Shown here in pieces: positions 1,860-40,275 of a stretch of 64,000 bases of DNA (its first letter is position 1; each line of letters begins with the position of its first letter). This DNA is from Bacillota bacterium (GTDB lineage Bacteria; Bacillota; Clostridia; Oscillospirales; QAMX01). The notes beneath the pieces were generated by a model. That model was not told where the DNA came from and searched no databases. It saw nothing but the letters and a program-made list of their open reading frames with translations. The position numbers and the translations under genes are program-made. The stretch is taken from assembly GCA_033813635.1 (NCBI GenBank), contig JAPXRI010000009.1, forward strand, positions 2,858-66,857, read 5' to 3'.

Positions 1860-1904
1860 ATCTCCTCCGAACCCCGGCTTTCCGGGTGTTTTGTATAAAA
1901 TATT

Positions 1905-1934
1905 CCCCGGAAGTATTATACCATACTTCCGGGG
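1905..1934 (-). terminator. Strong hairpin downstream of the first pilin-like gene
   Basis: 11-bp perfect stem CCCCGGAAGTA / TACTTCCGGGG with an 8-nt loop. On the minus strand it is followed by an AT-rich, partly U-rich tract. Confidence 0.5.
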
Positions 1935-1960
1935 AAATCGGCGTTAAATATTATTAAACT

Positions 1961-3538
1961 TTAACTCACAACAACCTGACACGCGGCATCGACTGTATCT
2001 CTTGAATCCGCGGTGTTTGTGAGCGTAATTGTTATCGTTCCTGAACCCGTTCTATTATAGCTGTCAACTCTAAGTGTTAAGGTATTTCCGCTATACCAGA
2101 CAGCTGGACCTTCATCGGTATAATCCAGTATGACAACTTCAGGATTTGAACTAACCCACGTTATTTTATATTTATTCCCGTTTGGCGCATTATAGAAATA
2201 ACCTCTTCTGGATTGCGGACCAGTTGTCACTCTTGTTATCGTCCCGTTTCCGTTCATAGTAAACGTTGCGGAGATTGTCGTATCGTTGTACCTTGGCATC
2301 GTGATGCTCGTTTTATTCAACGCTATTTGCGGCTGTAGCCTTACTACGGTCACATTGCAAATCGCCGAAACCGAGGTGTTGTCGGTTACTGTTACCTTAA
2401 TCTGCGCACTGCCCGGAGCGAGTGCCGTGACAGTACCGCTGGAATCTACCGTCGCCACACTTGGATTGCTGCTCGACCATGTGAGATCGTTTTGTGTTGT
2501 GTTCGACGGGGTAATAGTCGCTATAAGTTGCTGGGCCGGATCGCCTAAGATCATGTTAAGTGTATTTTTATTGAGCGTTATCCCTGTCGCCGGAATAACC
2601 CGCCGCAACACCGTAACATCACACGAGGCGGAAAACTCCGTTCCGGTCACCGTCACCGTAATCTGTGCTTCGCCCGGTGCGACTGGAGTCACATTGCCGT
2701 TAGCGTCAACAGTCGCGACCGCGGTGTTGCTGCTTGACCACGTCAAGGCCGTCTGCGTCGCATTTGACGGAGTTATCGTCGCTGTCAGCTTCACCGCCAG
2801 ATCTCCCTCGGTCGCTGAAATCTCTGTCCGGTCCAGCGTCACGCCCGTCGCGGGGATGATAACCGTGACATCGCACGCGGCGGAAAGCCCCGTTCCGGTC
2901 ACAGTCACCGTAATCCGCGCGCTGCCCGGCGCGACTGACGTCACATTGCCCTTGTTATCTACCGCCGCGACGCCGTTATTGCTGCTCGCCCATGTCAGCG
3001 CCCTCTGCGTCGCGTTTGCCGGAACGACCGCGGCGTTCAGCTTCACCGCCGTGCCGACGGATATCGTAAGCGTCGTCCGGTCAAGCGTAACTCCCGTAGC
3101 CGGGACGGGCGCTCCGATAATCCATGTCCCCGAATTGTTGACCAGTGGCATATCGGGAGACAAAAGGAGATAAGTGGTGCCGCTGCCGTCTGGGTCCTCG
3201 CCCTCAGCGGTGACCGCGCCGGTTGGGTTGTGGTAATAAAACCCGCAGCCGCGCTGCTTCGCCGTGAGAATGTCGTTTTCCAGCCCCGAGATTTTCAGCG
3301 CGCTTCCCACGTTGTCGACAGGCTGGCTGCTGCCGACTACGTTTAATTCGATTGCGTACTTTATCGCGTCCTCGATGGCCTTTGCGCTCGAGTTGTCCGC
3401 CGACCTGTTCGCCCGCGAAATCGTCCCGGACATCGTCGGCACCGCGATCGCCGACAGCACCGCGATGATGGCGACTGCGACTACCAGTTCGATGAGGGTA
3501 AACGCTTTTTTGCTAAGCATGCATTTTATCCTTCGCAT
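1961..3538 (-). CDS. Type IV pilin-like protein (prepilin N-terminal methylation motif) fused to 3 close plus 1 divergent Big_2-type Ig-like repeats
   Basis: N-terminus MRRIKCMLSKKAFTLIELVVAVAIIAVLSAIAVP, with Glu at +5. Three ~85-aa repeats of the form IPATGVTLDRT...LTWSSSN..VATVD..G.VT.VAPG.A.ITVTVT. An alternative start is M7 at 3520. Confidence 0.8.
   Translation of the reverse strand: MRRIKCMLSKKAFTLIELVVAVAIIAVLSAIAVPTMSGTISRANRSADNSSAKAIEDAIKYAIELNVVGSSQPVDNVGSALKISGLENDILTAKQRGCGFYYHNPTGAVTAEGEDPDGSGTTYLLLSPDMPLVNNSGTWIIGAPVPATGVTLDRTTLTISVGTAVKLNAAVVPANATQRALTWASSNNGVAAVDNKGNVTSVAPGSARITVTVTGTGLSAACDVTVIIPATGVTLDRTEISATEGDLAVKLTATITPSNATQTALTWSSSNTAVATVDANGNVTPVAPGEAQITVTVTGTEFSASCDVTVLRRVIPATGITLNKNTLNMILGDPAQQLIATITPSNTTQNDLTWSSSNPSVATVDSSGTVTALAPGSAQIKVTVTDNTSVSAICNVTVVRLQPQIALNKTSITMPRYNDTTISATFTMNGNGTITRVTTGPQSRRGYFYNAPNGNKYKITWVSSNPEVVILDYTDEGPAVWYSGNTLTLRVDSYNRTGSGTITITLTNTADSRDTVDAACQVVVS
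2342..3103 (-). repeat. Three tandem ~250-260 nt coding repeats (Big_2-like modules) inside the pilin-like gene
   Basis: The repeats are visible at DNA level. Compare for example the segments starting TTCCGGTCACCGTCACCGTAATC at ~2640 and TTCCGGTCACAGTCACCGTAATC at ~2890. They also generate the long antisense shadow ORF 2286-3173. Confidence 0.75.
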
Positions 3539-3581
3539 AATAAACGCGGCTCCTCTCGAAAAACGACATATATTGATTATA

Positions 3582-3610
3582 ATTATAATCTGTTATTATA
3601 CTGCGGTCAA
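3582..3610 (-). promoter_or_regulatory. Sigma-A type promoter for the first pilin-like gene
   Basis: Minus strand TTGACC (3610-3605), 17 nt spacer, TATAAT (3587-3582). Confidence 0.5.
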
Positions 3611-3661
3611 GCGTTTTATATCTACAAAGCAAAAGTATTCGTACAGAAGTTTATTCGTAAT

Positions 3662-5143
3662 TTATTCCGTGATTACAATATTAAAACTGCTAGATGTAAC
3701 CAAATCAGAAAATGTACCATCAAAATACTTATAAATCTCTATTGTTACCTTTGCGTTAGCATTTTTTTCAATACTCTCATTTCCACTTTCTTTTTTCCCA
3801 GTAAGCTTCAATTCAAGTGTTTTGTTGATTATATCAACCGTCATTAACACACTCTTCTTTTGATTCGTTTCAACATAATTAATGCATGAACATTTCAAAT
3901 AATATTCATTACCATCATAGTTAAAATAAAACCAATAGTATAGTTCTTTATAACTACTGTTTGAAGATCCGCTCGAATTTCCTTCTGAAATATTTGGTGC
4001 TATACCAAATCTAACAGTTTTTATTGCTATATTATCAGGTCCGCTATCTTTATCGATTAAAACATCTCCCGCCGGACTAAATGAAATAGATTGTACTGGT
4101 ACAGATACTGTCACTGAACATGTATCTGTATAATCCGTGAGAGAACCGTTTACCATTAATACTACCGTAACTGTAACAGGGCCTGGAGCCTTCCCCATCG
4201 TAAGATTAAAAGTATTACCGGTATCCGTGCCATTCTTTATTGCAGATCCTGTAAAACTCCATTGATATGACAATATGTCCGAAGCATTCGACGATGTTCC
4301 GGATGCGGTAAACGAGACCGCTTCACCTGTCGTCGCGGTTGTCGGACCGGCAATAATACTCACGCTGTACGAAGAGGGAGCATTTTCCACCGCGATGGTA
4401 TGCGTATCTGTTTCCCCGGTTGACACACCGTTTGCATATAGGGTTACCTCCACGACAACGCTTCCCGCTGTGCTCCCCGTTGTAATGGTATAAGAATCGT
4501 TATTGTCGGTATCTTCGCTATTTGCTTCACCCGACAGTATCGTCCATACATATGTAAGGATATCCGAAGCCTGTGATGAGGTACCCGTCGCTGTTAACGT
4601 TATACTCTGATTTATCTGAGAGGATTCCTGACCGGATATGCTAACGCTGTATGCCGGATTAATCTCTCCGCCGGATTCACCTCCGCCCTCGCCGCTACCG
4701 GAACCGCCTCCGCCACCGGATACCTCCTCAATCCGCCAGCCGGCGCCGGGAACATACTTCATCGGCGAGTCACCGGAAAGCAGCACATAGCCCGTACCGG
4801 GATTTGCTCCGGCCACTTCGACCTCGCCGTTTGTATTTTTGTAGTAGAAGCTGTAGCCGTTCCTTCTTGCCGTCAGCACACTCTCGCTCATCCCGGAAAG
4901 CCGAAGCGCAGCCTCCACATTGGTGTCGGCGGTATCGCTTGACGCCTCCTTCGAAGCGATAGCGTATTTGATCGCGCCTTCGATGCTTTTCGCGTTGGCT
5001 ATATCCGCCGATTCGTTTGCCCGCGAGACGACGCCCGAAACCGTCGGAATAGTGATCGCGGAAAGGATAATCAAAACTGCGATAACGATGATAAGTTCCG
5101 TAAGGGTAAACGCTTTTTTGCCTAATGTCTGCAGTTTGCGCAT
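3662..5143 (-). CDS. Second type IV pilin-like protein: Gly/Ser linker, two PKD/Ig-like repeats and an AT-rich-encoded C-terminal domain
   Basis: N-terminus MRKLQTLGKKAFTLTELIIVIAVLIILSAITIP. The first ~130 aa align with the neighbouring pilin-like protein. Linker SGGGGGSGSGEGGGESGG. Two ~90-aa repeats (TATGTSSQASDILTYVW / TASGTSSNASDILSYQW). Confidence 0.8.
   Translation of the reverse strand: MRKLQTLGKKAFTLTELIIVIAVLIILSAITIPTVSGVVSRANESADIANAKSIEGAIKYAIASKEASSDTADTNVEAALRLSGMSESVLTARRNGYSFYYKNTNGEVEVAGANPGTGYVLLSGDSPMKYVPGAGWRIEEVSGGGGGSGSGEGGGESGGEINPAYSVSISGQESSQINQSITLTATGTSSQASDILTYVWTILSGEANSEDTDNNDSYTITTGSTAGSVVVEVTLYANGVSTGETDTHTIAVENAPSSYSVSIIAGPTTATTGEAVSFTASGTSSNASDILSYQWSFTGSAIKNGTDTGNTFNLTMGKAPGPVTVTVVLMVNGSLTDYTDTCSVTVSVPVQSISFSPAGDVLIDKDSGPDNIAIKTVRFGIAPNISEGNSSGSSNSSYKELYYWFYFNYDGNEYYLKCSCINYVETNQKKSVLMTVDIINKTLELKLTGKKESGNESIEKNANAKVTIEIYKYFDGTFSDLVTSSSFNIVITE
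4103..4654 (-). repeat. Two tandem PKD-like coding repeats (~270 nt each)
   Basis: Protein residues ~164-253 and ~257-347 share the pattern S.SI.G......G....TA.GTSS.ASDIL.Y.W. Confidence 0.6.
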
Positions 5144-5183
5144 AATATGTACCCCCGTCCCCGATTTTTATGCTGTTTTTTCG

Positions 5184-5212
5184 ATTATAACGTGATTTCC
5201 AAATTATGTCAA
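5184..5212 (-). promoter_or_regulatory. Consensus sigma-A promoter for the second pilin-like gene
   Basis: Minus strand TTGACA (5212-5207), 17 nt spacer, TATAAT (5189-5184). A G-rich RBS lies before the ATG at 5143. Confidence 0.6.
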
Positions 5213-5368: not shown

Positions 5369-5395
5369 AAAAAAGAGTTCCGTTTTCACGGAACC
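5369..5395 (-). terminator. Intrinsic terminator after the BNR-repeat gene
   Basis: Minus strand GTTCCG-tgaaaa-CGGAAC followed by TCTTTTTT. Confidence 0.55.
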
Positions 5396-5511
5396 CGAAG
5401 TGATTTTCAGTTTTCGACGGAAAGCGAGTTTATAATCTTATAAACTGATTTCGGCGGCAGTCTTTTATCTTTCGCGCCATTTTAGCGCCGCCGCCGGTCA
5501 GGTTTTTCCGT

Positions 5512-7719
5512 TTAGTCGTTTTCCCCTATGTACCCGAACGCCCGGCCCATCCAGTAGGCGTAGATGAAATCCGTCGGCGCGCACTGGGTGCGGTTGACGC
5601 CGTTGCCGTTCAGGCATAAAAGCCGCTCGGCCTTTCCGCCGCCGACATCCTGGCGGTACAGCCCGGAGGGCGTGTCCACATAAAGGCAGTTGTGCTCCGG
5701 AACATATGTCATTCCCCTGATGAAGCCGATATGGTACCCGCTCCCGAACGGTGCAAAGTCCGCGCCGTTCTTGCTTATAAACAGCCCGTTGTTTGTTCCG
5801 GCGCAGATGGCGCCGCCAATGAACTCAAAGCAGGTAACGCTCCTGTCCTCGAGCCCGCTTCCGCGGCCCCAGCCGTCCGGGGTAACCCCCGCCGTGCCCA
5901 GCGTCGTCAGGAACGGGACGCCCTCCTTTGCGACAAACAGCATCGAGCCCCGCGTAAAGCCAGTAATGCCGTATATCTCATCCGCCGAAGTTTCGCAGAC
6001 ACGCGCGCCGAGCACCGGCAGATGCCAGAACGCGCCGAAATACGCCTTGGAATAGCTCCATGCCGGGTCGCCCTCGGTTTTTTTATACAGCCTGCCGTCG
6101 CAGAATTTGCAGAACATCGCTTTTCCGCCCACAAAGGTTATCCTCAGAGCGTTGTTTTTCAGATAGGCGTTCTCGCCCTTTATATCCGGAATATTCGGCT
6201 CACAGAGCGTCCAGTTCAGCGCCGTTGAGGCCATACTGCCCCCGTTGTCCAGGCTCTTGTAGACGCCCTTATCGGTTATCGCGTAGAAAACGCCGCCGGG
6301 GCTTTGGTAGAGCCTCTGCGCGCCTGCGTTTTCCGCGCCCGGCAGCCCGACCTTTTCCCAGCTCATTCCCCCGCTGACGCTGCGGTAAACTCCGTCGGCC
6401 GCCGCGGCCAGCGAGAGCCGCATCGTCTCCCTGTCGTAAATCACGTCCACCGTCCCGACGGGCAGCGGCATCGCGTGGAAGGTCTCGCCCCCGTCCTCGG
6501 AACGCCAGTATGAACCGTTTTCCTCGAGAACGTTGATAATGCACGGGTCCTCGTCGCAGGCGGCCACCTTTCTTACCGGCCTTGAGAGCCATCCGTCGCA
6601 GCGGTACGGGCTGCCCTTCCACTCGAGTTCGTTATCAATCGGACGCAGGGCCATCGGCACCGGGCGCGGCGCCCGATCGTTCACCCGCAGAAACGGACCG
6701 TTCTGCGGCGTATTGAGCTTCGGTTCGTAAAAGCGGTTCTCGTCGTAGCCCGTTAGCGTATCAATGCCCTCGTCGATCTCTCCGTCGCCGGTGATCTGCT
6801 TTGACAAAAAATTAAACGGTGTCACAAGGTCGTGCCGGTAGACCTCGTTCAGAACAGCCGCGTAGGCGCGGTAGAACGCCCGCTTTACCGGATCTTCCTC
6901 GATCAGGTGCATCAGGTACAGGTCCGGAAAAACATGCTCCGCGTCGTCATGGTCCGGCCTGTAATCCCGCATAGCCTCGCGCATCGCCTCCGTATCCCCG
7001 AGGCGCGCCATGTCGAGCCTGCCGCAGAGGTCCTCGTAGAGCGCCTGGAAGCGCCGGTCGCCGGTGACATAATCGAGCATTTTGCAGTTCGTAAGCGCCA
7101 TTGTCAGGCAGTCGTTCGGGGTTCTGTGGCTCGTGAAGACGATCGCCGTGGACGGGTCGCCGTCGCCGAGGACCGCGTTCATACCGTAGTCAAGATAGAC
7201 CCTCCGGCCCAGCAGCCCCAAATCCTCTCTGATTCGCGCCTTTTGCTCCTCGGTTGCCGCCAGAACATAGTACATAGTCATCCCGCGGATATAGTGGTCG
7301 TGGTTGTGGTGGCTCGGCGAGGAGATATAGCGCATCTCTGCGTATTCGCCCTGCCCCTGCCGGCATATTTTCCCCTGAAGCCCTCCGCTCTTCTCCTCGG
7401 CGGTGAGCCCGTGCTTAGTGAGATACCCCCTGCACAGGACGCCCGGCGTGCCCGAGATGCGGATGCAGTTTCCCATGCAGCGGAGGACCTCGTCCGCATG
7501 CCGGCGCACCGCGTCGTCCCCGGTGGCCGCGTATTTAAAAGCGAGCCCGCTGAGATACACGCCCGTCCACGTTATCGCGTGGGCGAAGATCTTCTCGTTT
7601 GGGTCAATCATGTTTCCCCTCTGGTCCACTTCGACGGCGGAGCCCACAAGCCCGCCGTCAATAAGGTGCTTTTCCGCCATCCTTTTCTCAAGAAAAACAA
7701 TCTTTTCACAGAGCTTCAT
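5512..7719 (-). CDS. Large cytoplasmic protein with a helical N-terminal half and a C-terminal BNR/Asp-box beta-propeller (putative glycoside hydrolase-like)
   Basis: Asp-box-like motifs SEDGGETF, SVSGGMSW, SLDNGGS. No signal peptide. The likely start is M36 of the ORF (ATG at 7719), preceded by GGGGAGAG. Confidence 0.65.
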   Translation of the reverse strand: MKLCEKIVFLEKRMAEKHLIDGGLVGSAVEVDQRGNMIDPNEKIFAHAITWTGVYLSGLAFKYAATGDDAVRRHADEVLRCMGNCIRISGTPGVLCRGYLTKHGLTAEEKSGGLQGKICRQGQGEYAEMRYISSPSHHNHDHYIRGMTMYYVLAATEEQKARIREDLGLLGRRVYLDYGMNAVLGDGDPSTAIVFTSHRTPNDCLTMALTNCKMLDYVTGDRRFQALYEDLCGRLDMARLGDTEAMREAMRDYRPDHDDAEHVFPDLYLMHLIEEDPVKRAFYRAYAAVLNEVYRHDLVTPFNFLSKQITGDGEIDEGIDTLTGYDENRFYEPKLNTPQNGPFLRVNDRAPRPVPMALRPIDNELEWKGSPYRCDGWLSRPVRKVAACDEDPCIINVLEENGSYWRSEDGGETFHAMPLPVGTVDVIYDRETMRLSLAAAADGVYRSVSGGMSWEKVGLPGAENAGAQRLYQSPGGVFYAITDKGVYKSLDNGGSMASTALNWTLCEPNIPDIKGENAYLKNNALRITFVGGKAMFCKFCDGRLYKKTEGDPAWSYSKAYFGAFWHLPVLGARVCETSADEIYGITGFTRGSMLFVAKEGVPFLTTLGTAGVTPDGWGRGSGLEDRSVTCFEFIGGAICAGTNNGLFISKNGADFAPFGSGYHIGFIRGMTYVPEHNCLYVDTPSGLYRQDVGGGKAERLLCLNGNGVNRTQCAPTDFIYAYWMGRAFGYIGEND

Positions 7720-7912
7720 TTCTACTCTCCCCGCTTTCAAAATTAATCGTTCCTGTCCCATTATATACCAATTTATACGCTGTTTCAAACGTATAACGGC
7801 ATGCAGGCTCTGAAATAACGGCATTTTTCATTGATAAATGCGGCGTCTCCCGGAGCGGTTTATGCTGCCGGTTCCGTTTCACCCTAAAAATTAATTACAT
7901 TTACCAAATAAT

Positions 7913-7948: not shown

Positions 7949-8051
7949 TGTAAATTGTCGGTCGTGGAACAGCATGCTTCTTTGAGCAGTGCGTCTCATT
8001 GCGTGAACGGATCTGAATATTAAAGCTAGGGTCTTGCCGTATGGGGGAAAA

Positions 8052-9662
8052 ATGATTGACATTTCGCAGAGTAGGAAAAGTTTAAAGCGCGTCCGTTGTT
8101 TCCTGATTATCCTTCTGTGCGCCGCGGTGCTCAGTTCCTGTGCCATAATTATGACTTGGACCTGCTCCATTGCGCTCATGATCGAGAATGCCAGGGTGTT
8201 AGCGGCGGCCTTCGCCGCAGGCATATCCGATACCGACATAGAAAAGCTCATCATACACAAGGATGCAGCCGCGCTTCCGGAGTATTCCGCCCTGGTTAGG
8301 ACGCTAACAGAGATGGCGGATTCCCGGGAAGAGGTGACCCGCATCCTTTTGCTTGTCGGAGACCGCGGGGAATTCCGCGTCGCTGCCGATTCCTCCGACG
8401 GGACGCCGCCCGGCGCTGCGTATGACGGCGACGGGCCCGCCAAGGCGCTCCAAACGAATAAACCCTATGTCTACAGCGCGGTCGGAAAAGACAGGCGCAT
8501 TCACGTTTATGTACCGAAAGCCGCTCAAGACCCCGGACAGACAGCCGTCCTTTTCGTCGATTTTACAGCAAAGCACTGGTACGCGCTGGCGTTCAGAGAA
8601 ACCGTCAAAACGGCCGCCCTGTGCGTCCTGATCGCCTCGGTCTTCATTCTTGCGCGTATGATGCTGTTAAAAAACACTGCGCTTTACATAAGAGTTAAAG
8701 CACCGAAATATAAATCAGGGGGCGGCGTAATCACGCTGAAAAGCGGTCTAAACAGGGCGCCGGTCGGAACGACGGCCGCGAAGAGGCGCCGGTTAACGGG
8801 CGACATCGGCCCGATTTTAAGAGAGTTTCCCGGCGATCTAATAAACATTCACCCCCGCCGGGCAGCAAATCCCCCGTACGCCGGGCAGCCGGAAGATTAT
8901 ATGCTGATAAAGCGCTTCGTCAGGCCGGACGGGTCGGACGTCTGGCTCAGTATGCTAATCCCCCCTCCCGCCGTATATAGCGCCGACAGCGGCTCCCAAA
9001 GCCGACTCAGCCTTATTGAAAATACCTGCGAACAAACCGCGCAGCCGGCGGACAAGCCCCACAAAACGGTGCCCGGGAGGCTTTTTAGCCGCAAAAGGCG
9101 CAGAAGCGGGCTGGCGTTCTCATTGATGCGCGAGCGCTACGAAAAAAGCATCGAAACGGAACAGCACCTGAATCGGCTCGCCGCGCTCTCGAGAAGGACC
9201 GGCGAGGCGATGAATGTCTCGGGCGACCTCCTCGCGCAGCTCGACCTTCTCGCGGCTCTCCACGATATCGGAAAAGTGGCTCTGGACGACGCTATTCTCG
9301 AAAAACCCGGAGCGCTCACTCCGTCGGAGCGGCGCGCGGTGGAAACGCACCCGGAAATCGGCTACCGCATCGTAAAGTCCTCGCCGGAGCTCGCGCCGGT
9401 CGCCGAGTACATCCTCTGCCACCATGAACGCTGGGACGGGAAGGGTTACCCCCGAGGCCTCTCCGGCGATCAGATTCCCCTGTTGTCGCGGATACTCGCC
9501 GTAGCGGACGCGTACGACGCGATGACAAGCGACCGTGTCTACAGAAAAGCTCTCACCGCCGAACACGCGCTCGACGAGATACAGAGAAACAACGGAACAC
9601 AGTTCGACCCGAGCGTCGTGGAAGCGTTTGTCGAAACTGTCCTGAAGCGATACCCATCATAA
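8052..9662 (+). CDS. Membrane sensor protein with periplasmic-type sensor domain, degenerate PAS and C-terminal HD-GYP domain (putative c-di-GMP phosphodiesterase)
   Basis: HDIGKVAL...HHERWDGKGYPRGL...AVADAYDAMTSDRVYR. Two predicted TM segments flank a ~170-aa loop. ATG at 8052 is preceded by GGGGGA. Confidence 0.8.
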   Translation: MIDISQSRKSLKRVRCFLIILLCAAVLSSCAIIMTWTCSIALMIENARVLAAAFAAGISDTDIEKLIIHKDAAALPEYSALVRTLTEMADSREEVTRILLLVGDRGEFRVAADSSDGTPPGAAYDGDGPAKALQTNKPYVYSAVGKDRRIHVYVPKAAQDPGQTAVLFVDFTAKHWYALAFRETVKTAALCVLIASVFILARMMLLKNTALYIRVKAPKYKSGGGVITLKSGLNRAPVGTTAAKRRRLTGDIGPILREFPGDLINIHPRRAANPPYAGQPEDYMLIKRFVRPDGSDVWLSMLIPPPAVYSADSGSQSRLSLIENTCEQTAQPADKPHKTVPGRLFSRKRRRSGLAFSLMRERYEKSIETEQHLNRLAALSRRTGEAMNVSGDLLAQLDLLAALHDIGKVALDDAILEKPGALTPSERRAVETHPEIGYRIVKSSPELAPVAEYILCHHERWDGKGYPRGLSGDQIPLLSRILAVADAYDAMTSDRVYRKALTAEHALDEIQRNNGTQFDPSVVEAFVETVLKRYPS

Positions 9663-9707
9663 AACTAGCTATGAAATTCCAACGGAGCGCAAAGCGCCCG
9701 TTAAAGG

Positions 9708-12035
9708 ATGGTAATCTTAATGGAAAATCCCGTCTTGTGGATCGCTTTCGTCATCGCGGCCGCAGTTCTTTTAGTAATCGTTATCTATCTTCTTTTCAAG
9801 CTTAAAAACAAGAACAACTCGCTGAAGAGCCTGAAAACACTTTTAAATTCATATGCTGAAAACGACAGGAAAGGGATATCCTTTAAAGACGCCTCTCTGA
9901 AATATATCTTCGTAAACGCCGAATATGCCCGACTTTTCGGTAAAAAAGAATCCGACTTCGTCGGGCTGACCGATTTTGACATTTTCGAACGGCACATCGT
10001 CGATTTTATTCAGGAAACTGATGAGCGCGTTCTTAAAAGCGGCTCGAACGTAACCTATGAGAGAACGATAAACTCCTGTGTGTTCAGGGTAATCAAATTC
10101 CAGGTCAAGCTGGCCGACGGCACAACGGGTGTAGGCTGTTTCATTCAGGATACCACCGAGGAAAAGCGTTTTCTTAAAAATCAGGAAAGGATTTTTAACC
10201 GCAACAAAACGCTGCTGGATTTCTTTTCGCAGAGCTTCCCGAGCCGCGAAAGCCAGCTGGATTATATCGTCGACGCGGCGAAACGCGTTTCGGAAAGCCG
10301 GGAGGGCTTCGTCTTTTTCTCAAACAAGGACGCCCAGCCCGACCATATCGCCTGCATATTCTGCCTCAAGGCGTTGGAAACGAAAAAACCGGTGATCATA
10401 AACGATTTCAACACTAAGGCTTATGAGACCGTACTGCCGGCGGAGCACCGCAGCATCTCCTGCGTGATGATCGTCCCGGTGGTCATAAGGGACAAAGCCG
10501 AAGCGGTCATCGGCCTCGCCAACAAGCCCGGAGGCTACAGCGACGAAGACGCCTCCGAGATCGACCTGCTAATAAGCGGCATGCGGAACGCCGTGGTCCG
10601 GCGGGAAGCGGAGGAAAAACTGGCTTTCGAGCGCGACCGTTTTCTCAAGACTCTTGTATCCATCGGCAGCGGCGTTATTGCCACCGACAAAAACGGTATA
10701 ATCGAGATACAAAACACCGCCGCCGAGAAGCTTACCGGCCGCTCTCACGCGGAGGCGGTGGGCCGTCCCTACTCCGAGGTATACACCGTCGAACGGGCCC
10801 CCGGTCAGCCCGACCCGATCGGCGCCGCGCTCTCAAGCGGAAGACCGTTCTCCTCCAAGACCAGCGTTGTTTTAATCTCCAAAAACGGGACGCGCTACCA
10901 TATTGAGGAAAACGCCGCGCCGATACGCGACAGCACGGGGACAGCCGGAGCGGTGCTTATCTTCAGCGACGTTACCGAGATGGAGGTGCAGCGCGGGAAA
11001 ATCGAATTCCTGAGCTTTCACGACCCGCTCACCGGGCTTTACAACAGGCGCTTCTTCGAGGAGGAGATGCGGCGGCTCGACGTGAAGCGAAATCTCCCCT
11101 TGTCGATTATTATGGGCGACGCCAACGGGCTTAAGCTGACAAACGACATCTTCGGCCACGCCTTCGGCGACACGCTGATAAAAAAAGCGGCGCAGACCTT
11201 TAAAAAGGTGTGCCGTTCCGACGATATCATCGCGCGCCTTGACGGCGACGAATTCGTAATTCTGCTCCCCCGCACCGACGCGAAGGGGGCCGAATCTGTT
11301 ATCGAGCGCATCAAGGAGGAGTTTTCAAAGGAACAGGTCAAGATGATCAGGTGCAATATTTCGATGGGTACGGACACCAAAACCGAAATGTCTGAAAACC
11401 TGCTGGACGTCTATAAAAACGCCGAGGAAAAGATGTACCACGCGAAGGTGCTTGAGTCGGACAGCTTCAACGCGTCTGCGATTGAGCTGTTCATGGCCAC
11501 TCTCCAGGGTTCAACTTCCGGAGAGAAAAAGCACTCCGATTTTGTGTCCGAGCTCTGCGCCCGCATAGGGGCGGAGCTCGGCCTCTCCGATACCGTGCGG
11601 AAGAAGCTGTACGACGCCGGCTATTACCACGATATCGGCAAGATCACCCTCGACCGGAAACTCCTGAAAAAGCATTTCAATCTGACCGATCAGGAGTGGA
11701 ACGAGATCAGAAAGCACCCGCTGACCGGGTATAGGATTTTGTCGCACTGCAGCAGCACGATGGACCTCGCCGACGCCGTGCTCGCGCACCACGAGCGCTG
11801 GGACGGCTACGGCTACCCCAAGGGTCTGAAGGGCGACGAGATCCCGCTGATGTCACGGATTATCGCGATCGCCGAGGGCTTTGAGCGAAAGCTCTCAGGG
11901 GACGATTTCAATCCCCCGTTAAGCCTCGCGGACGCCCAGAAATATATTACCCAAAACGCCGGCACGCTCTACGATCCGTCGCTGATAGGCGCATTTCTAA
12001 AGGTCTCAAGCCAGTACTTTTCCTCAAAAAACTAA
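9708..12035 (+). CDS. TM-PAS-GAF-PAS-GGDEF-HD-GYP multidomain signalling protein
   Basis: GGDEF domain (LTGLYNRRFF...GHAFGD...RLDGDEFVILL) followed by HD-GYP (HDIGKITL...HHERWDGYGYPKGL). Confidence 0.85.
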   Translation: MVILMENPVLWIAFVIAAAVLLVIVIYLLFKLKNKNNSLKSLKTLLNSYAENDRKGISFKDASLKYIFVNAEYARLFGKKESDFVGLTDFDIFERHIVDFIQETDERVLKSGSNVTYERTINSCVFRVIKFQVKLADGTTGVGCFIQDTTEEKRFLKNQERIFNRNKTLLDFFSQSFPSRESQLDYIVDAAKRVSESREGFVFFSNKDAQPDHIACIFCLKALETKKPVIINDFNTKAYETVLPAEHRSISCVMIVPVVIRDKAEAVIGLANKPGGYSDEDASEIDLLISGMRNAVVRREAEEKLAFERDRFLKTLVSIGSGVIATDKNGIIEIQNTAAEKLTGRSHAEAVGRPYSEVYTVERAPGQPDPIGAALSSGRPFSSKTSVVLISKNGTRYHIEENAAPIRDSTGTAGAVLIFSDVTEMEVQRGKIEFLSFHDPLTGLYNRRFFEEEMRRLDVKRNLPLSIIMGDANGLKLTNDIFGHAFGDTLIKKAAQTFKKVCRSDDIIARLDGDEFVILLPRTDAKGAESVIERIKEEFSKEQVKMIRCNISMGTDTKTEMSENLLDVYKNAEEKMYHAKVLESDSFNASAIELFMATLQGSTSGEKKHSDFVSELCARIGAELGLSDTVRKKLYDAGYYHDIGKITLDRKLLKKHFNLTDQEWNEIRKHPLTGYRILSHCSSTMDLADAVLAHHERWDGYGYPKGLKGDEIPLMSRIIAIAEGFERKLSGDDFNPPLSLADAQKYITQNAGTLYDPSLIGAFLKVSSQYFSSKN

Positions 12036-13089: not shown

Positions 13090-14082
13090 CTACCAGAGCT
13101 TATACACATCCGTTTTGTCGTTTTTCAGCACCGAAAGCCCGATGCGCTCCGTGCCCCCGCGCCAGCCGTCGCGGGCGTTGTAGTAGAGCCGCAGCTCGCC
13201 GTCGTATTTAGCCAGGTCGAGCTGGTAAACCAGCGCTTTCTTCCACCCTTCCGCCGGCGCGATGATCGGGTTGTAGGGCGCCTCGCGCCACGAGATCCCG
13301 TCCTCGCTTATAAGTACGCAGATGGCCGAGCGAGAGCGGTTTTCGGCGTCGGTATAAATCCCGTTGTAGAGCGCCAGGTACCCGCCCCGGTAGCCGAACA
13401 CCTTGATCGCCCCCGCCCCTAGGTTTCTGTGAGGAATCGCCGCGTCCGGCGCGAGTATCGGCGTCTTGTGCTTTTTAAACGGGCCGAGGGGGCTGTCGGC
13501 CTCGGCGAAGCTTATGTATTTCGGCTCCTCGTAGCCGCAGTCCTCCAGCTTGACCGTCCCGGCGCTGTAGTAGAGCCTGTATTTACCCTCCCTGGTCTTA
13601 ATTACGCAGGGGTTTCTCGCCTCTACGCTGACATAGCCCGGCGTGTGCTCCCGCTCCCAGGGGAGCTCGGGGCGGATCAGTTCCAGGCTGTCGCTCCAGT
13701 TTTCAAAATCCGCCGTGACCCTGACGCGCACGGCGTTGTTGATCCCGGTTTTCCTCATCTCCTCGCCGTCGAGAATCGCGGTGTAGTAGAGGTAGAAAAG
13801 TCCGCCGTCCCTGAACAGGTAACAAGGGTTGACACGCCAGGGCAGCATGTCCCGAAGCGTCCAGGAAAACCCGTCATCCGAGACACGGTGGTGAAAGTGG
13901 GGCGCGAAATCTTTCCCGAAAAATCCGTGGTAAAACGCGTGCCACTTTGAATCGTAATCCCCCGGCGTCAAAATCTGCGGGTCGCCGATCGCCGCCCGCG
14001 CCTCGTCGTTTTCATCGAGTCCGATAACCGGGTTGCCCGGATAATCCTCCCATTTTTCGCTCTGCCACTCCGGAAATTCCAT
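13090..14082 (-). CDS. Beta-propeller glycoside hydrolase-like protein (GH43/GH130-superfamily-like; family uncertain)
   Basis: 330 aa with no signal peptide. Repeated W/Y-rich blade-like segments (DGFSWT, DGISWRE, LYYNARDGW). Confidence 0.45.
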   Translation of the reverse strand: MEFPEWQSEKWEDYPGNPVIGLDENDEARAAIGDPQILTPGDYDSKWHAFYHGFFGKDFAPHFHHRVSDDGFSWTLRDMLPWRVNPCYLFRDGGLFYLYYTAILDGEEMRKTGINNAVRVRVTADFENWSDSLELIRPELPWEREHTPGYVSVEARNPCVIKTREGKYRLYYSAGTVKLEDCGYEEPKYISFAEADSPLGPFKKHKTPILAPDAAIPHRNLGAGAIKVFGYRGGYLALYNGIYTDAENRSRSAICVLISEDGISWREAPYNPIIAPAEGWKKALVYQLDLAKYDGELRLYYNARDGWRGGTERIGLSVLKNDKTDVYKLW

Positions 14083-22025: not shown

Positions 22026-23450
22026 TCAGAGTTTTTTATTGTCGGCGAGCTGGCGGTCTAGCCAGCCGCTTTTAACAAACAGATCCCCCTGTTCCTTGAG
22101 TACCGCCAGCAGCTTTTTGCGCATCGCGGCTATCCGCTCCGCGTGCTCCGGCGAGGAAATCAGGTTTTTCTTTTCTCCCGGATCGTTCTCAAGGTCGTAG
22201 AACTCGTCGATGTCGGTGAAATTCCAGATGTATTTAAACCGGCGGTCCCTGAGCATCCGCTGGTTGTAGAAGCCGAATTGCTGCCCGTTCGACGAGGCGT
22301 TGATCTCCTGCCGCCAGTTTTCCGGGCGCTCACCCCGCAACAGCGGAGCGAGAGAGACGCCCTGGGCCTTCGCGGACTCCGCCCCGAAAAGCTCGTCGAT
22401 TGTCGGCGCAAGGTCCAGCCCGGAGGAGACAAGCTCCTTCACCACCGCGCCCTTTCCGATCCCCGGCCCGGACATGATGAACGGCACCTTGACCACGTCG
22501 TCGTAGAGCACATAGTGCTTGTCAATCATCCCGTGGCTCCCGCACATGTCCCCGTGGTCCGAGGTGTAGAGGATTATCGTATTGGAGAGCTGGCCGCAGT
22601 CCTTTAGCGCTTTCAGGATAATGCCGACGCTGTCGTCTATCTGGCTGACCATGCCGTAATAGCGCGCGATCGGTTCGGCCCAGTCGCCAAAGCCCATTTT
22701 TTCCAGCCCCCAGCTGTAGAGCTGCTGCTTTTGAATATAGGGCTTGCCCTCAAACGTGTCGCCGACCCCGTCCCAGGGCTCGATATCCCCCGCGCTGTAC
22801 ATCGAGGCGAAGGGCTCCGACGGCTCGCAGGGCAGATGTGGCTCGCAGTAGTCGACCCGGATATGCCAGGGTCCGCCCTTTTCAGAATACTCCGCGATGG
22901 TCTCCGCGGCCTTCCGCGCGAGGTAATGGGTTCTTGAGTCGGCGAGGGCGATATCGCTTTTCCCGCCGAACCAGTCAAAACGCCTGCGCTTTGGGTATTT
23001 TTCTCTTATCATCTCGTCGTGCTCGCGGAAATCCACGTACTTGTCGTAGCCGAAATCCTTAGGCCCGTAATCCTTCGCGCCCTCCCACTTTCCGAGAAAC
23101 GCGGTCCGATACCCCGCTGCCTTGAGCTTTTCCGGCCAGTAGCCTCCCGGGGCGAGGGGCGCCGCGTGAAAGAATCCCGGGTTCCAGAACGCTCCGTAGC
23201 TGTCCGGGTTCTTTCCGCAGATCAGCGACTGCCGCGCCGGCGTGCAGACCGGCAGCGGCGTGAACGCGTTTTCAAACCGGGCGCCGCTTTCCGCCAGCGC
23301 GTCGAGGTTCGGCGTTTTTATCCTGAATTTCCCCGCGCAGCCCAGCGCGTCCGCCCTATGCTGGTCGGCTACTATCATAAGGAAATTATAATTTCCTCGA
23401 AAATCAACATTTTCTCGAAAGTTATAATTTTTCTGATTGTTTTTATCCAT
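22026..23450 (-). CDS. Cys-type sulfatase (formylglycine-dependent), no signal peptide
   Basis: Signature PVCTPARQSLICG (C-x-P-x-R...G). N-terminal LMIVADQHRAD. SDHGDMCG metal-site motif. Confidence 0.85.
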   Translation of the reverse strand: MDKNNQKNYNFRENVDFRGNYNFLMIVADQHRADALGCAGKFRIKTPNLDALAESGARFENAFTPLPVCTPARQSLICGKNPDSYGAFWNPGFFHAAPLAPGGYWPEKLKAAGYRTAFLGKWEGAKDYGPKDFGYDKYVDFREHDEMIREKYPKRRRFDWFGGKSDIALADSRTHYLARKAAETIAEYSEKGGPWHIRVDYCEPHLPCEPSEPFASMYSAGDIEPWDGVGDTFEGKPYIQKQQLYSWGLEKMGFGDWAEPIARYYGMVSQIDDSVGIILKALKDCGQLSNTIILYTSDHGDMCGSHGMIDKHYVLYDDVVKVPFIMSGPGIGKGAVVKELVSSGLDLAPTIDELFGAESAKAQGVSLAPLLRGERPENWRQEINASSNGQQFGFYNQRMLRDRRFKYIWNFTDIDEFYDLENDPGEKKNLISSPEHAERIAAMRKKLLAVLKEQGDLFVKSGWLDRQLADNKKL

Positions 23451-23470
23451 CGCGGTATACCCCCGGCGCT

Positions 23471-24349
23471 CTACAGCTTCGAGCAGCTGTTTTTATATTC
23501 GCTCGGCGTGACGCCGGTGAACGACTTGAACTCGCGTGAAAAATGGCTTAAATGCTTGTACCCGACGGCGGCCGAAATATCGCTTAAATTCTCCGCCGAG
23601 TCGCAGCGGATGATGTTCATTGCCCGGGCGAGCCGGTAGCTCCGCAGAAACACGGCCGGGCTCAGGCCCATTATCTTTTTGAACTGCCGGGACAGGTAAT
23701 CCGGCGAGATGTCGAGGTGGGCCGCCATTTTATTTAAATCGATATCCTCGGCGTAATTCTGCTCTATGTACTTAAGTATTTTCACCACGTAATTGATATA
23801 CGCCTTCTCCGACGGGTTCGTAGCGTAATGGCCGGCGTAATACCTTGAAAAAAGCGTGATAAACTGGTATAAAAGCGCGTTTTGAACCAGCTCCCAGCCG
23901 AGCTGCTTTTGCCTTTGCTCCTCGACCATCCTGTCGAGCACCGAGGTAATCCGCATCCTCTCGGCGGTGTCAAGCCTTATCCTTATCCATTCCTGATTCT
24001 TATGGCCGTTGTTCCCGCCGAAAATGCTGTCGAGTCCGGGCATCGCGGATAATTCCGGCAGCTTATCCGCCACCGCTTCCCGGGTGAAAATACAGTTGTA
24101 CACCTTCGTATAATGCAGGCCTGTGTACGCATGCGGGACCCCGGGACAGATCGCGAACATATCCCCCTCGGTCAGAATCGTCGTGCTCTCTCCGTAGTAG
24201 TGGACCGTGAAGCCCTCCTCCACGTAGACGAACTCGTAGAAATCATGTGCGTGCATATTGATCTGAGTGCTGTGGCAGCACTCGATCACCGTGATTGCCG
24301 AGTCCGGCGAATTTTTAATCTCGTTGTAATTCAGCATGTCGTAATTCAT
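23471..24349 (-). CDS. AraC family transcriptional regulator (cupin sensor plus HTH)
   Basis: C-terminal AraC HTH (LSPDYLSRQFKK..., GYKHLSHFSREFKSFTGVTPSEY). Confidence 0.85.
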   Translation of the reverse strand: MNYDMLNYNEIKNSPDSAITVIECCHSTQINMHAHDFYEFVYVEEGFTVHYYGESTTILTEGDMFAICPGVPHAYTGLHYTKVYNCIFTREAVADKLPELSAMPGLDSIFGGNNGHKNQEWIRIRLDTAERMRITSVLDRMVEEQRQKQLGWELVQNALLYQFITLFSRYYAGHYATNPSEKAYINYVVKILKYIEQNYAEDIDLNKMAAHLDISPDYLSRQFKKIMGLSPAVFLRSYRLARAMNIIRCDSAENLSDISAAVGYKHLSHFSREFKSFTGVTPSEYKNSCSKL

Positions 24350-24517
24350 GCGAAAGGCCCCCCGCTCCGCGTCGCTGCCGGATATGATGCCTTAAAGCAT
24401 AACTATTATATCTGCCCCCGGCGCATTGCGCAATAGTTAATTTATATATTTCCGTCCACGGGGTTCTCGTTTAGAAGCGCATTCCGGGTTTAGTCAAATG
24501 CGGTTGAAAATATATAA

Positions 24518-24558
24518 ACAAAAACACCGCGGCCGGGATTTATACATTTCCCGCCGCA
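24518..24558 (-). terminator. Intrinsic terminator after the TIM-barrel gene
   Basis: Minus strand GCGGCGGGA...TCCCGGCCGC hairpin followed by GGTGTTTTTGTTTAT. Confidence 0.5.
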
Positions 24559-24575
24559 GCGCTCGAAAGAGCCGT

Positions 24576-25412
24576 TTATTTTGCCTGCTCCGCTTGTTTG
24601 TCGAATTCCAGCGCAATATCCCGCACTTTCGCGCAGTTTTCGCTGTTTACGTATTCCAGAATGAACGGAACTCCCTCGGTGTTCTCATGGTAAAGGGAGA
24701 AGAATTTTACCCAATCGATGTCCCCCTCGCCAAGATTCCTGCCGTAGGTGTCGTTCACCCTCCTGTCTTTTCCGTGAAAATAGGCCACGTGCGGGGAGAG
24801 ATATTTGAACATATCCTCCTCGTCGGAATTTGCGATCAGGTTCGCTGGATCGAGGAGGATTTTAAGCCTTGGCGAGCCCAGCTGCGAGATAAAATCCCGC
24901 GTGCGCTTCGCGCTCGGCGTCAGGTCGAGAAGGCAGGGCTCGAAGGCGATATAGACGCCGTGCTTTTCCGCGATCTCGCAGAGCCTCGCCATATTCTTTT
25001 GAAAATAGGCGTAATCCTTTTCGTAGGTGTCCGTGTTTATACCCCGCCTGCCCGGAACAAAGCCGTTTTCCGTCGACACGTATTTGATGCCGTTGTCCGC
25101 GGCGATCTCAATATGCCGCTCGAAAAACCTAAAATTCCCGTTGAGAGCGTCCTCATCCGGCTCAATCAGGTTTGAAAAGGCCCCGACGGAGACGACCTTG
25201 ATCCCCCGGCTTTCGAACTCTTTGACTATTTTAGACGCCTTCGCGGCGGTCAGCGCGCTCATGTCCTTTCTGCCGTTATAGGCCCAGTAGTCCGCGTCCG
25301 AAAAAGTAAAGCACAGTTCAGTCGAAAAAAATCCGAGCCCGGCCATCCGGCTCGCGCATTCCTCGGCGCTCATCCCCGAAAAGCTCCTTGTTACAACGCC
25401 CACCTCGAGCAT
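24576..25412 (-). CDS. Sugar phosphate isomerase/epimerase (xylose isomerase-like TIM barrel)
   Basis: 278 aa AP_endonuc_2-like pattern (FEPCLLD..., ILLDPANL, HGKD). Confidence 0.75.
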   Translation of the reverse strand: MLEVGVVTRSFSGMSAEECASRMAGLGFFSTELCFTFSDADYWAYNGRKDMSALTAAKASKIVKEFESRGIKVVSVGAFSNLIEPDEDALNGNFRFFERHIEIAADNGIKYVSTENGFVPGRRGINTDTYEKDYAYFQKNMARLCEIAEKHGVYIAFEPCLLDLTPSAKRTRDFISQLGSPRLKILLDPANLIANSDEEDMFKYLSPHVAYFHGKDRRVNDTYGRNLGEGDIDWVKFFSLYHENTEGVPFILEYVNSENCAKVRDIALEFDKQAEQAK

Positions 25413-25567
25413 AGCATCAACTCCTTTTTCAATATTATAGACTCGGGCCGGAAATATTTCAACAGCAACAATTCACCCGCGCCGGAAAAATCTAAAACCC
25501 CGTCGGAAATAGTTAAGCGAAAGCGTGCGTTTTCTCCTTCCTGCTTCGCGCCGTCGCACTTGACAAA

Positions 25568-25598
25568 GAAAAAGCGCGGCGAGACCGCCGCGAAAAAC
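25568..25598. terminator. Small GC hairpin flanked by A- and T-runs
   Basis: CGCGGC-gagacc-GCCGCG with AAAAAG upstream and AAAAAC downstream (T-runs on the minus strand). Confidence 0.45.
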
Positions 25599-25619
25599 AT
25601 ATAGCCCGGCTCCGGCAAA

Positions 25620-26117
25620 TCAGTATATTTTAAGCAAAATCCCGCTCTGGGCGCACCGGATCAGCGAACAGCCGATAAAGCCGGGCAGGTTTCTTGAAAA
25701 TATCCTGATATTGCTCTCGTCGATCCTGATCCAGTTGTGTTTTGCCAGCGCGAACGACAGCCCGCTCTTTCCCGTGATGCCCAGCAGTGCCCCGCCGAGC
25801 CCGCCGTTCTGCCGCGTTTCGGTATATGTCGCGTAGGCGTCCGCCGTCCCGTTGGAGATCTCGAGCTTTTTCAGGCTGAACACGTAGTTCAGCCCCATCC
25901 CCCCCGTTGTCGCCGCGCTGAGCAGGATTTTGCCCTCCCTGTCGAAAGCGACGGACTTTATTATCAAATCTCCCTCGGTGAGGGTTCTCAGCGCCAGCTC
26001 TATCATCTTCGCGCTGACAAGCAGCTGTCCCCTCGAGAGGAGCGCTCCGTCGATCATGCCGAGCAGGGTGTAAACTTCGTTTTTATGGGCGACCGCCTTA
26101 AGCAGGATATCCTTCAT
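25620..26117 (-). CDS. Hypothetical protein (no family recognised)
   Basis: 165-aa ORF with normal composition, sitting between a terminator and a neighbouring gene. I recognise no motif. Confidence 0.55.
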   Translation of the reverse strand: MKDILLKAVAHKNEVYTLLGMIDGALLSRGQLLVSAKMIELALRTLTEGDLIIKSVAFDREGKILLSAATTGGMGLNYVFSLKKLEISNGTADAYATYTETRQNGGLGGALLGITGKSGLSFALAKHNWIRIDESNIRIFSRNLPGFIGCSLIRCAQSGILLKIY

Positions 26118-26257
26118 TTTAATAACCTCTCCGTTCCTCGGTCATCTATCCTCATCTATCCATATGCCGATTTCTGAAATAAAATACCCTTAAACCGCGT
26201 CTTCTCTCCGCGCCCCGTTTTTAGCGCAATGCCCGGGACCGGCGGCTTTCTGACCGG

Positions 26258-26295
26258 ATAAAAATCCGGCAGGCAAATTTCACTGCCTGCCGGAT
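26258..26295 (-). terminator. Intrinsic terminator after the DUF1680-like gene
   Basis: 12-bp stem ATCCGGCAGGCA / TGCCTGCCGGAT. The minus strand is followed by TTTTTATCC. Confidence 0.65.
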
Positions 26296-26374
26296 GCTTA
26301 TGTTTTGCCCCAGTCATCGACATCGAGCTGAATTTATGTATCGCCCCGGAGTACTGTCATGTTGTACGTCCGGT

Positions 26375-39436: not shown

Positions 39437-39451
39437 ATTATGTCTGCTGTT

Positions 39452-40255
39452 TTATATATCCAATGCGAAAATATTCTGGTACCGCCTGCCCTGGGCGTAT
39501 ATCGCGCTGGTCTGCGGGATGTGGGCCACGCGCACCAGCCTCGCGCCGAGCTTTTCGCAGACGCGGACCGATGCGAGATTCGTCGGGTGGTTTGCAATCA
39601 GCACGCGCTTCATGCCGTGCCGGGCTGCGAGGGGCAGAATAAGCGCGGTCGCCGCGCCGGCGTAACCGTTGCCCCGCATCGAGTCGTCCACCGAAAAGCC
39701 GATATTCCCCTCCAGCGCGATATCCGGGCTGATCCCCGGCCTGAAATCCACCATGCCGATCTCCCCGCCGCCCACGCAAATAGCGAAGCGGTATCTCGGG
39801 ACCCCGCCGGGTTCCTTTTCGGTGTCTCTGAACTCCTTTGCCTCCACCGATACAACGCCGTCCGACGCACCGTTAAACGGCAAATACCCAGTAAACGGGT
39901 CGCAGGGAAAATAGTCGGAAAGCTCCGCTGTGCAGAACCGGTCTCCCCCGCCCCTCTTTTTAAAGCCCAGGCGCTCAAACACCCTGCCGTAAGCCCCGCC
40001 GGAGACAAGGTTTACCGCGCGGCACCCGAAGTCAAAAAACAGGCAGTGCAGTATCGCCTCCGCCGCCTCGAAAACCACGGCCTCGTCAAGGCCGGAGGGC
40101 AAACCGTCGAAACGGAGCACGGAAATCTCCCCTTCCCGGGAAAGCACGGCTCCGAAAAGCCTTTCGCCGCCCGCCTTGCGCTTTACAGCCCACAAAAGCG
40201 GGCGCTCCGGCTCGAGCGTAAGATTTTTCGTCTCTACGGGGTTGCCTTCGGTCAC
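39452..40255 (-). CDS. GNAT family N-acetyltransferase
   Basis: 267 aa. C-terminal GNAT core (RGNGYAGAATALILPLA...). Confidence 0.65.
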   Translation of the reverse strand: MTEGNPVETKNLTLEPERPLLWAVKRKAGGERLFGAVLSREGEISVLRFDGLPSGLDEAVVFEAAEAILHCLFFDFGCRAVNLVSGGAYGRVFERLGFKKRGGGDRFCTAELSDYFPCDPFTGYLPFNGASDGVVSVEAKEFRDTEKEPGGVPRYRFAICVGGGEIGMVDFRPGISPDIALEGNIGFSVDDSMRGNGYAGAATALILPLAARHGMKRVLIANHPTNLASVRVCEKLGARLVRVAHIPQTSAIYAQGRRYQNIFALDI

Positions 40256-40275
40256 GGCCTTCTCCTTTTAGGTTT

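Follow-up and report, generated by a model that had tools for sequence, protein, structure and literature searches.

A tandem pair of candidate modular type IV pilins with different immunoglobulin-like modules, encoded apart from pilus assembly genes

Which filament, if any, would take up two pilin-like proteins whose genes have no pilus assembly genes around them? This question is raised by a tandem gene pair in a 64,000-nucleotide stretch of DNA (hereafter, the window) from a Bacillota bacterium of the order Oscillospirales (assembly GCA_033813635.1, contig JAPXRI010000009.1, positions 2,858 to 66,857). Open reading frame (ORF) calling placed both genes on the minus strand, and we denoted them U (upstream) and D (downstream). 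Each encodes a prepilin leader and a pilin module that is continued by immunoglobulin-like (Ig-like) domains of a different family (Table 1). An initial annotation, made from the letters alone, had described the pair as two modular pilins with a common scaffold and different Ig-like modules, located away from assembly genes, and this core description is supported by the analysis reported here. In the explanation that we consider probable, U and D are modular type IV pilins, that is, paralogs of a major pilin with added Ig-like modules, and are served by an unlinked type IVa pilus (T4aP) operon.

Pilin module, Ig-like modules and control signals of genes U and D

Both proteins start with a class III (prepilin) signal that has Glu at position +5, as initially annotated. 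The leader ends in KKA and is followed by FTLxE (FTLxEL) and about 21 hydrophobic residues, and the mature proteins contain Glu5 and Pro22. The NCBIfam prepilin model TIGR02532 matched the two genes with 29.1 and 17.3 bits, both above its cutoff of 16.3, which identifies a class III signal peptide (IPR012902/TIGR02532) in each; for the Pfam N_methyl model, gene D passed the cutoff of 21.2 bits with 27.9, and gene U fell short with 16.7. Across 39 members of the pilin family, the F, T, L, and E5 positions are invariant, and Phe1, Glu5, and Pro22 of the mature protein are conserved.

The similarity between U and D extends well past the signal. Their N-termini share 64 of 132 residues (48% identity, BLASTP E = 4e-30), and no significant BLASTP similarity was detected after residue ~132, in agreement with the proposal that the two proteins align at first and then diverge. 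The relatedness of the genes therefore spans ~132 amino acids (aa) and is not confined to the signal. A search for homologs with a 140-aa fragment alone gave no matches, and alignments were needed as queries. When 1.84 billion representatives were searched exhaustively with HMMER and a 142-position profile built from the U and D modules, 389 proteins matched below 1e-10. Of the top 150 matches, most are stand-alone pilins of 120-170 aa that cover profile positions ~8-125, showing that the shared region corresponds to a whole small pilin rather than merely to the signal. A family profile made from 39 sequences matched solved T4a major pilins, namely, Geobacter PilA (1e-18) and Streptococcus sanguinis PilE1 (2e-14), as well as Thermus PilA4 and PilA5 over positions 11-117, through the globular head; residues 12-116 of the gene U product also matched Thermus PilA4 (6xxd).

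AlphaFold2 (AF2) modeling of residues 1-147 of the gene D product from a 106-sequence alignment (pLDDT 89.5, pTM 0.74) predicted an N-terminal helix of 54 residues, two short helices, and a five-stranded sheet. This confident model, together with the sequence profiles, indicates that the module would adopt the pilin lollipop fold (alpha1 plus an antiparallel beta sheet). AF2 modeling of full-length gene D from the single sequence gave a pLDDT of 35. The modeled region thus appears to be a full pilin head, homologous to major pilins encoded in pilus operons, and not an ordinary signal anchor.

The initial annotation had singled out the Ala at position -1 of the predicted cleavage site as a departure from the usual Gly. 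Leader peptides of type IV pilins end in Gly or Ala (PMC10191384), so this residue is a normal leader end. Among the top 150 representatives, Ala(-1) was found in 5 of 23 long (modular) family members and in 1 of 121 small ones (Fisher p = 4e-4; the statistic is not phylogenetically independent), and this enrichment may reflect shared ancestry or a difference in processing.

Beyond the pilin module, the two proteins carry modules of different families. In gene D, Big_2 (PF02368) matched in three stretches with E = 4.9e-47 (158.2 bits against a cutoff of 22.8). The last 124 aa lie below plain Big_2 detection but were recognized by hhalign against a Big_2-repeat profile (80% probability, E = 1.4e-5), and aBig_2 matched in four stretches; the layout of three close repeats and one divergent repeat therefore stands. 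In gene U, the Gly/Ser-rich linker and the two PKD-like repeats were likewise borne out, PKD_4 (PF18911) being borderline (27.3 bits against a cutoff of 27); the two-stretch match of K319L-like_PKD is below its cutoff, and the same region matched NCBIfam NF038112 (3.9e-10). The description of the end domain as Tyr/Asn-rich applies only modestly (10 Tyr and 13 Asn among 143 residues). This domain is not Big_2-like and gave no Pfam, NCBIfam, or PDB sequence match. With Big_2 in D and PKD_4 in U, both proteins combine a pilin module with an extra non-pilus domain, as modular pilins do by definition. Neither protein contains an LPxT[GAS] or LPXTG sorting motif, and assignment to sortase-assembled pili or LPXTG adhesins was rejected.

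Table 1 Features of the gene pair (window coordinates) and of the candidate pilus locus L098 (coordinates within L098)
Feature	Position	Strand	Description
Gene U	3662..5143	-	493 aa: prepilin leader, pilin module, Gly/Ser linker, two PKD repeats, C-terminal domain without family
Gene U promoter-like site	5184..5212	-	TTGACA-17-TATAAT, 12/12, sigma-70-type
Gene U leader	5111..5143	-	Residues 1-11, MRKLQTLGKKA; cleavage predicted after Ala11
Gene U pilin module	4736..5110	-	Residues 12-136; 51% identical to operon-encoded PilA P0256
Gene U linker	4655..4723	-	Residues 141-163; Gly/Ser-rich, flexible
Gene U PKD-like Ig repeats (two)	4094..4654	-	Residues 164-257 and 258-350; 41% mutual identity
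Gene U C-terminal domain	3665..4093	-	143 aa; without family match
Gene D	1961..3538	-	525 aa: prepilin leader, pilin module, three Big_2 repeats, one divergent Big_2-like domain
Gene D promoter-like site	3582..3610	-	TTGACC-17-TATAAT, 11/12, sigma-70-type
Gene D leader	3503..3538	-	Residues 1-12, MRRIKCMLSKKA; cleavage predicted after Ala12
Gene D pilin module	3116..3502	-	Residues 13-141; AF2: helix 15-68 and five beta strands
Gene D Big_2 repeats (three)	2336..3106	-	Residues 145-227, 228-314, and 315-401; 55-67% mutual identity
Gene D divergent fourth Big_2-like domain	1964..2335	-	Residues 402-525; with insertions
Intrinsic-terminator-like hairpin	1903..1936	-	End of transcription unit; 14-bp stem, then T-run; strong
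Minor-pilin-like genes (three)	L098 7185-9797	-	549, 145, and 179 aa; divergent from candidate pil operon
Candidate PilD (Peptidase_A24)	L098 12699-13385

A near-consensus promoter-like site precedes each gene, as proposed in the initial annotation, and ribosome-binding sites are present ahead of both. No terminator was detected between U and D. The -10 element of gene U ends 41 nt 5' of the ATG, leaving no room for a riboswitch in the leader; neither the Rfam scan nor the tRNA scan gave a hit in the window, and accordingly no cyclic di-GMP (c-di-GMP) riboswitch is found upstream of the pair. Words of gene D occurred in at least nine RNA-seq runs, and a metatranscriptome contig of 1281 nt spans 2268..3548, starting 10 nt 5' of the gene D ATG and stopping short of gene U; this RNA evidence consists of assembled contigs at low depth, in which DNA carry-over is possible. 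The pattern fits expression of gene D and its transcription independently of gene U.

Pilus machinery in the same assembly

Pfam searches of called genes and tblastn with PilB, PilT, PilC, PilD, PilMN, and PilO seeds found no pilus machinery from about -8 kb to +64 kb, which confirms and extends the earlier remark that none lies nearby; the window contains only two prepilin motifs, those of U and D. Three small homologs, P0157, P0010, and P0256, each open a T4aP operon in their own contig, with the gene order pilin, PilMN-like, PilO/GspM-like, Peptidase_A24, PilB (MshEN and T2SSE), PilT, and PilC. The second gene (~520-546 aa) is PilM/N-like by position, and the third (~185-200 aa) is weakly GspM/PilO-like. 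Because its small members head pil operons and PilB was found within 10 kb at 46 of the 80 genome loci retrieved with the family profile, we assign the family, by sequence, to the major pilins of Clostridia type IVa pili.

One of these operons likely belongs to the window organism. In assembly ERZ3460576, the window contig is NODE_148 (194.5 kb, coverage 11.7), and NODE_188 (168 kb, coverage 13.5) encodes P0256, a putative major pilin (PilA) of 145 aa; run SRR10608982 contains both P0256 and the pilin pair. The tetranucleotide correlation between the window and L098, the 20-kb locus around P0256, is 0.974, within the 0.95-0.99 observed for pieces of the window contig itself and above the 0.75 of the best unrelated locus at the same GC content. 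The shared assembly, the similar coverage, the co-occurrence in a second run, and the matching composition together make ownership of the operon by the window organism likely.

L098 carries a full pil operon together with three divergently oriented minor-pilin-like genes. Its PilT scored 422 bits against the TIGR01420 cutoff of 319; the top match of its PilB, TIGR02538, reached 548.7 bits, under the equivalog cutoff of 675.65, and Pfam T2SSE, T2SSF, and Peptidase_A24 were also found in the operon. A candidate prepilin peptidase and candidate assembly genes (PilB, PilT, and PilC), for which a search beyond the locus had been proposed, are thus present on NODE_188, whose coverage and tetranucleotide signature agree with those of the window.

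P0256 is 51% identical to the U module and 45% identical to the D module across the whole pilin, whereas the minor pilins of L098 match at alpha1 only (24-37 bits against 105-126). On this basis, U and D are likely paralogs of the major pilin that acquired C-terminal modules. P0256 also shares the motifs FTLxEL...P22...AIKYAI...FYY with them; unlike U and D, it has Gly at -1, carries no modules after the pilin, and heads the operon that encodes the machinery. As for the three divergent genes, the 549-aa protein has a hydrophobic N-terminus without Glu5 and is a possible tip cap, and the 145-aa and 179-aa proteins have VTLVE and FTLAE, respectively, after the Gly of the cleavage site; the three would amount to a minimal set of minor pilins.

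In the candidate pil operon, PilB (L098 13415-15085) bears the c-di-GMP-binding MshEN motif (NF053729, 62.7 bits, with a cutoff of 38). On the plus strand, opposite to the pilin pair and a few kilobases upstream of it (window 8034-12035), two genes for c-di-GMP turnover encode an HD-GYP protein of 540 aa and a PAS-GAF-PAS-GGDEF-HD-GYP protein of 771 aa. There may be a regulatory link between these genes and the MshEN-bearing PilB.

Proposed role as filament subunits and the alternatives

If U and D are modular pilins, their path to the surface can be outlined as follows. The hydrophobic alpha1N helix would insert the prepilin into the membrane, and PilD from the unlinked T4aP operon would cut the 11-12-residue leader after Ala(-1). 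The PilB/PilC motor would then extract the mature subunit and co-polymerize it with the 145-aa major pilin through contacts of the conserved alpha1 helix (Phe1, Glu5, and Pro22) and the major-pilin-like head. The Big_2 stalk of D, or the linker, PKD repeats, and end domain of U, would project from the filament and could attach it to polymers, flocs, or other cells in anaerobic sludge. We infer cleavage, incorporation, position in the filament, and adhesion for both proteins; polymerization by machinery of the PilB/PilC type is suggested by full-length homology to operon-encoded major pilins, and an adhesive role of the Ig-like modules is suggested by their domain families.

Several observations weigh against this explanation. 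Big_2 and PKD domains are often mere spacers, and a subunit with an appendage of ~40 kDa may be hard to fit in the pilus shaft. Gene U was found in 1 RNA run only and is almost absent from metatranscriptomes. The link between NODE_148 and NODE_188 rests on composition, coverage, and co-occurrence rather than on a closed genome. Foldseek comparison of the module model with the PDB gave no significant match, the best relevant one being Thermus PilA4 (E 1.6, TM 0.44). In S. sanguinis, the set of minor pilins that takes the place of the tip-located PilHIJK complex includes the modular pilins (PMC10191384), and modular pilins have been called likely tip-exposed (PMC8179133); the tip complex of S. 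sanguinis is encoded with the machinery, whereas U and D are orphans. A bolder variant holds that U and D co-polymerize along the shaft and not at the tip alone, yielding an Ig-stalk-decorated pilus in which the two promoters switch the displayed module and Ala(-1) is a processing throttle that sets low stoichiometry. We regard this variant as doubtful.

The main rival to filament incorporation is that U and D are pilin-anchored surface proteins that never polymerize: the prepilin helix would tether them in the membrane, and the Ig-like domains would span the wall and display the end domain. This arrangement would agree with the lack of machinery or any other pilin gene within 72 kb and with the absence of LPXTG or another wall-anchor motif, which leaves the N-terminal helix as the sole anchor, and four tandem Ig-like domains could be long enough to cross a Gram-positive wall. 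The enrichment of Ala(-1) in long members could also reflect different processing, although that association is not phylogenetically independent. A plain anchor, however, needs neither a complete major-pilin head with 45-51% identity to the operon-encoded protein nor Phe1, Glu5, and Pro22, and characterized modular pilins are filament subunits (PMC8179133). We therefore consider a purely anchoring role rather unlikely.

Membership in another type IV filament, such as the Com (DNA-uptake) pseudopilus or a pseudopilus resembling that of type II secretion systems (T2SS), is very improbable. It is suggested by the initial 50-65 residues, which weakly match the NCBIfam models of ComGC and GspG (E about 1e-5), and streptococcal ComGC has Ala at -1 as well, but the matches reach about 26 bits against cutoffs of 75 and 89 and are confined to alpha1, whereas the full-length homologs head operons with the PilT retraction ATPase, a T4aP marker (TIGR01420, 422 against 319). 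Identity with the ComGC major pilin was accordingly rejected (NF040999, 25.5 and 26.2 bits against a cutoff of 75; homologs in PilT-containing operons), as was a T2SS (GspG) assignment, with a score far under the cutoff and a match limited to alpha1.

That U and D are decaying or silent paralogs without current function is the least probable of the alternatives: the orphan location, the near absence of gene U from RNA data, and the apparent frameshift of the closest ortholog, P0003, in two assemblies would agree with decay, but both ORFs recur intact and near-identical in six or more independent samples, consensus promoter-like sites, ribosome-binding sites, and a terminator are present, gene D recurs in metatranscriptomes, and all pilin hallmark residues are kept.

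Known modular pilins and the surroundings of the locus

Modular pilins, in which by definition a functional module is fused to the pilin module, were described by Raynaud et al. in 2021, who showed that the S. sanguinis modular pilin PilB is an adhesin and cataloged more than 1,200 modular pilins in 264 architectures, including pilin-Big_2, pilin-Big_2-Big_2, and pilin-PKD (PMC8179133). The design is hence widespread and already described, contrary to the initial annotation, which had considered it unusual for an adhesin, and the U and D pair does not reveal a new kind of machine. What it adds to the concept is an environmental example in which a duplicated major pilin, not a specialized minor pilin, likely gained different Ig-like modules, and in which the genes sit far from the pilus operon yet appear to be transcribed in situ (RNA from low-depth contigs). 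The locus would also offer a testable system for the entry of bulky subunits into monoderm type IV pili (T4P), for tuning by Ala or Gly at -1, and for the ligands of Big_2 or PKD pili in digester flocs.

The S. sanguinis proteins PilB (with a vWA domain) and PilC (with a lectin domain) resemble U and D in having a class III signal, a small pilin module, a linker, and non-pilus domains (PMC8179133; PMC9934059), and their system, like the candidate operon described here, is a monoderm T4aP with PilT. They differ in three respects. U and D carry Ig-like repeats (four Big_2 domains, or two PKD repeats and an unassigned domain) instead of vWA or lectin domains; their pilin module is a close paralog (45-51%) of the major pilin, with Glu5 kept; and they form an orphan tandem pair with promoter-like sites of its own and no pilus gene within ~72 kb, whereas the S. 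sanguinis genes lie inside the pil locus.

By lineage, the nearest studied relatives are the ruminococcal pilins CbpC/GP25 of Ruminococcus albus and Pil3 of R. flavefaciens, which share with the pair a broad lineage (Oscillospiraceae-type Clostridia) and a type of T4P operon (pilD, pilB, pilT, and pilM); these small pilins occur in the cellulose-bound and in the extracellular fraction and have been linked to cellulose binding (PMC3672088). They are single-domain proteins of 14-25 kDa for which binding by the pilin itself has been proposed, whereas D adds about 390 and U about 350 residues of modules. The similarity detected to the R. flavefaciens locus is at the level of alpha1, and a member of the pilin family was retrieved from R. 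flavefaciens MA2007 (L042). The large minor pilins CofB and TcpB of type IVb (T4b) pili also combine a pilin domain, a linker, and beta-rich domains (as summarized in PMC8179133); unlike U and D, they are Proteobacterial trimeric tip initiators without sequence relation to the pair, and their extra domains are not recognized by Pfam Ig families.

Other long members of the pilin family include P0003 (three Big_2 domains), P0094 (GDSL lipase), P0105 and P0110 (right-handed beta-helix), and several with unassigned domains. The P0003 contig is syntenic with the window (RF-1, Sua5, CoaE, M18 peptidase, FBP aldolase, FtsW, and then the pilin), again without machinery. P0003, the closest modular ortholog (L012 7543-9310), stops at 8847, and a Big_2-like ORF resumes in another frame from 8936; this break, which is the same in two independent assemblies, is probably a frameshift.

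The locus sequence was found in anaerobic-digester, wastewater, and sludge metagenomes. It is intact in four DNA runs, with few single-nucleotide polymorphisms and no structural variants, and no strain-level module exchange was found in these runs.

The gene directly upstream of the pair (window 5512-7824, minus strand) encodes a product of 735-770 aa without a Pfam match and has its own terminator (5396..5375). Farther along, the window includes genes for a GH43-like protein (weak match), a GH127-like protein, a sulfatase, an AraC regulator, and a sugar ABC binding protein with two permeases (13090-14082 and 22026-28072); the predicted functions of these genes give the surroundings of the pilin locus a polysaccharide-use flavor. 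An IS-type transposase gene (39440-40627, plus strand; rve integrase core and helix-turn-helix domains) is inserted so that it separates the valine-tRNA ligase gene from the Rnf cluster, and a putative surface adhesin of 520 aa with PA14 and SpaA/SdrD_B/CarboxypepD_reg-like domains is encoded at 50058-51620 (minus strand). To the left of the window, at about -3 to -8 kb (L001 14810-21578), at least four tandem paralogous genes encode lipoproteins of ~485-500 aa with the lipobox ...FAGCS and no Pfam match. The three that lie fully within L001 have nearly identical C-terminal regions of ~350 residues and divergent N-termini, and the fourth runs off the end of the locus; the array suggests recent duplication or gene conversion.

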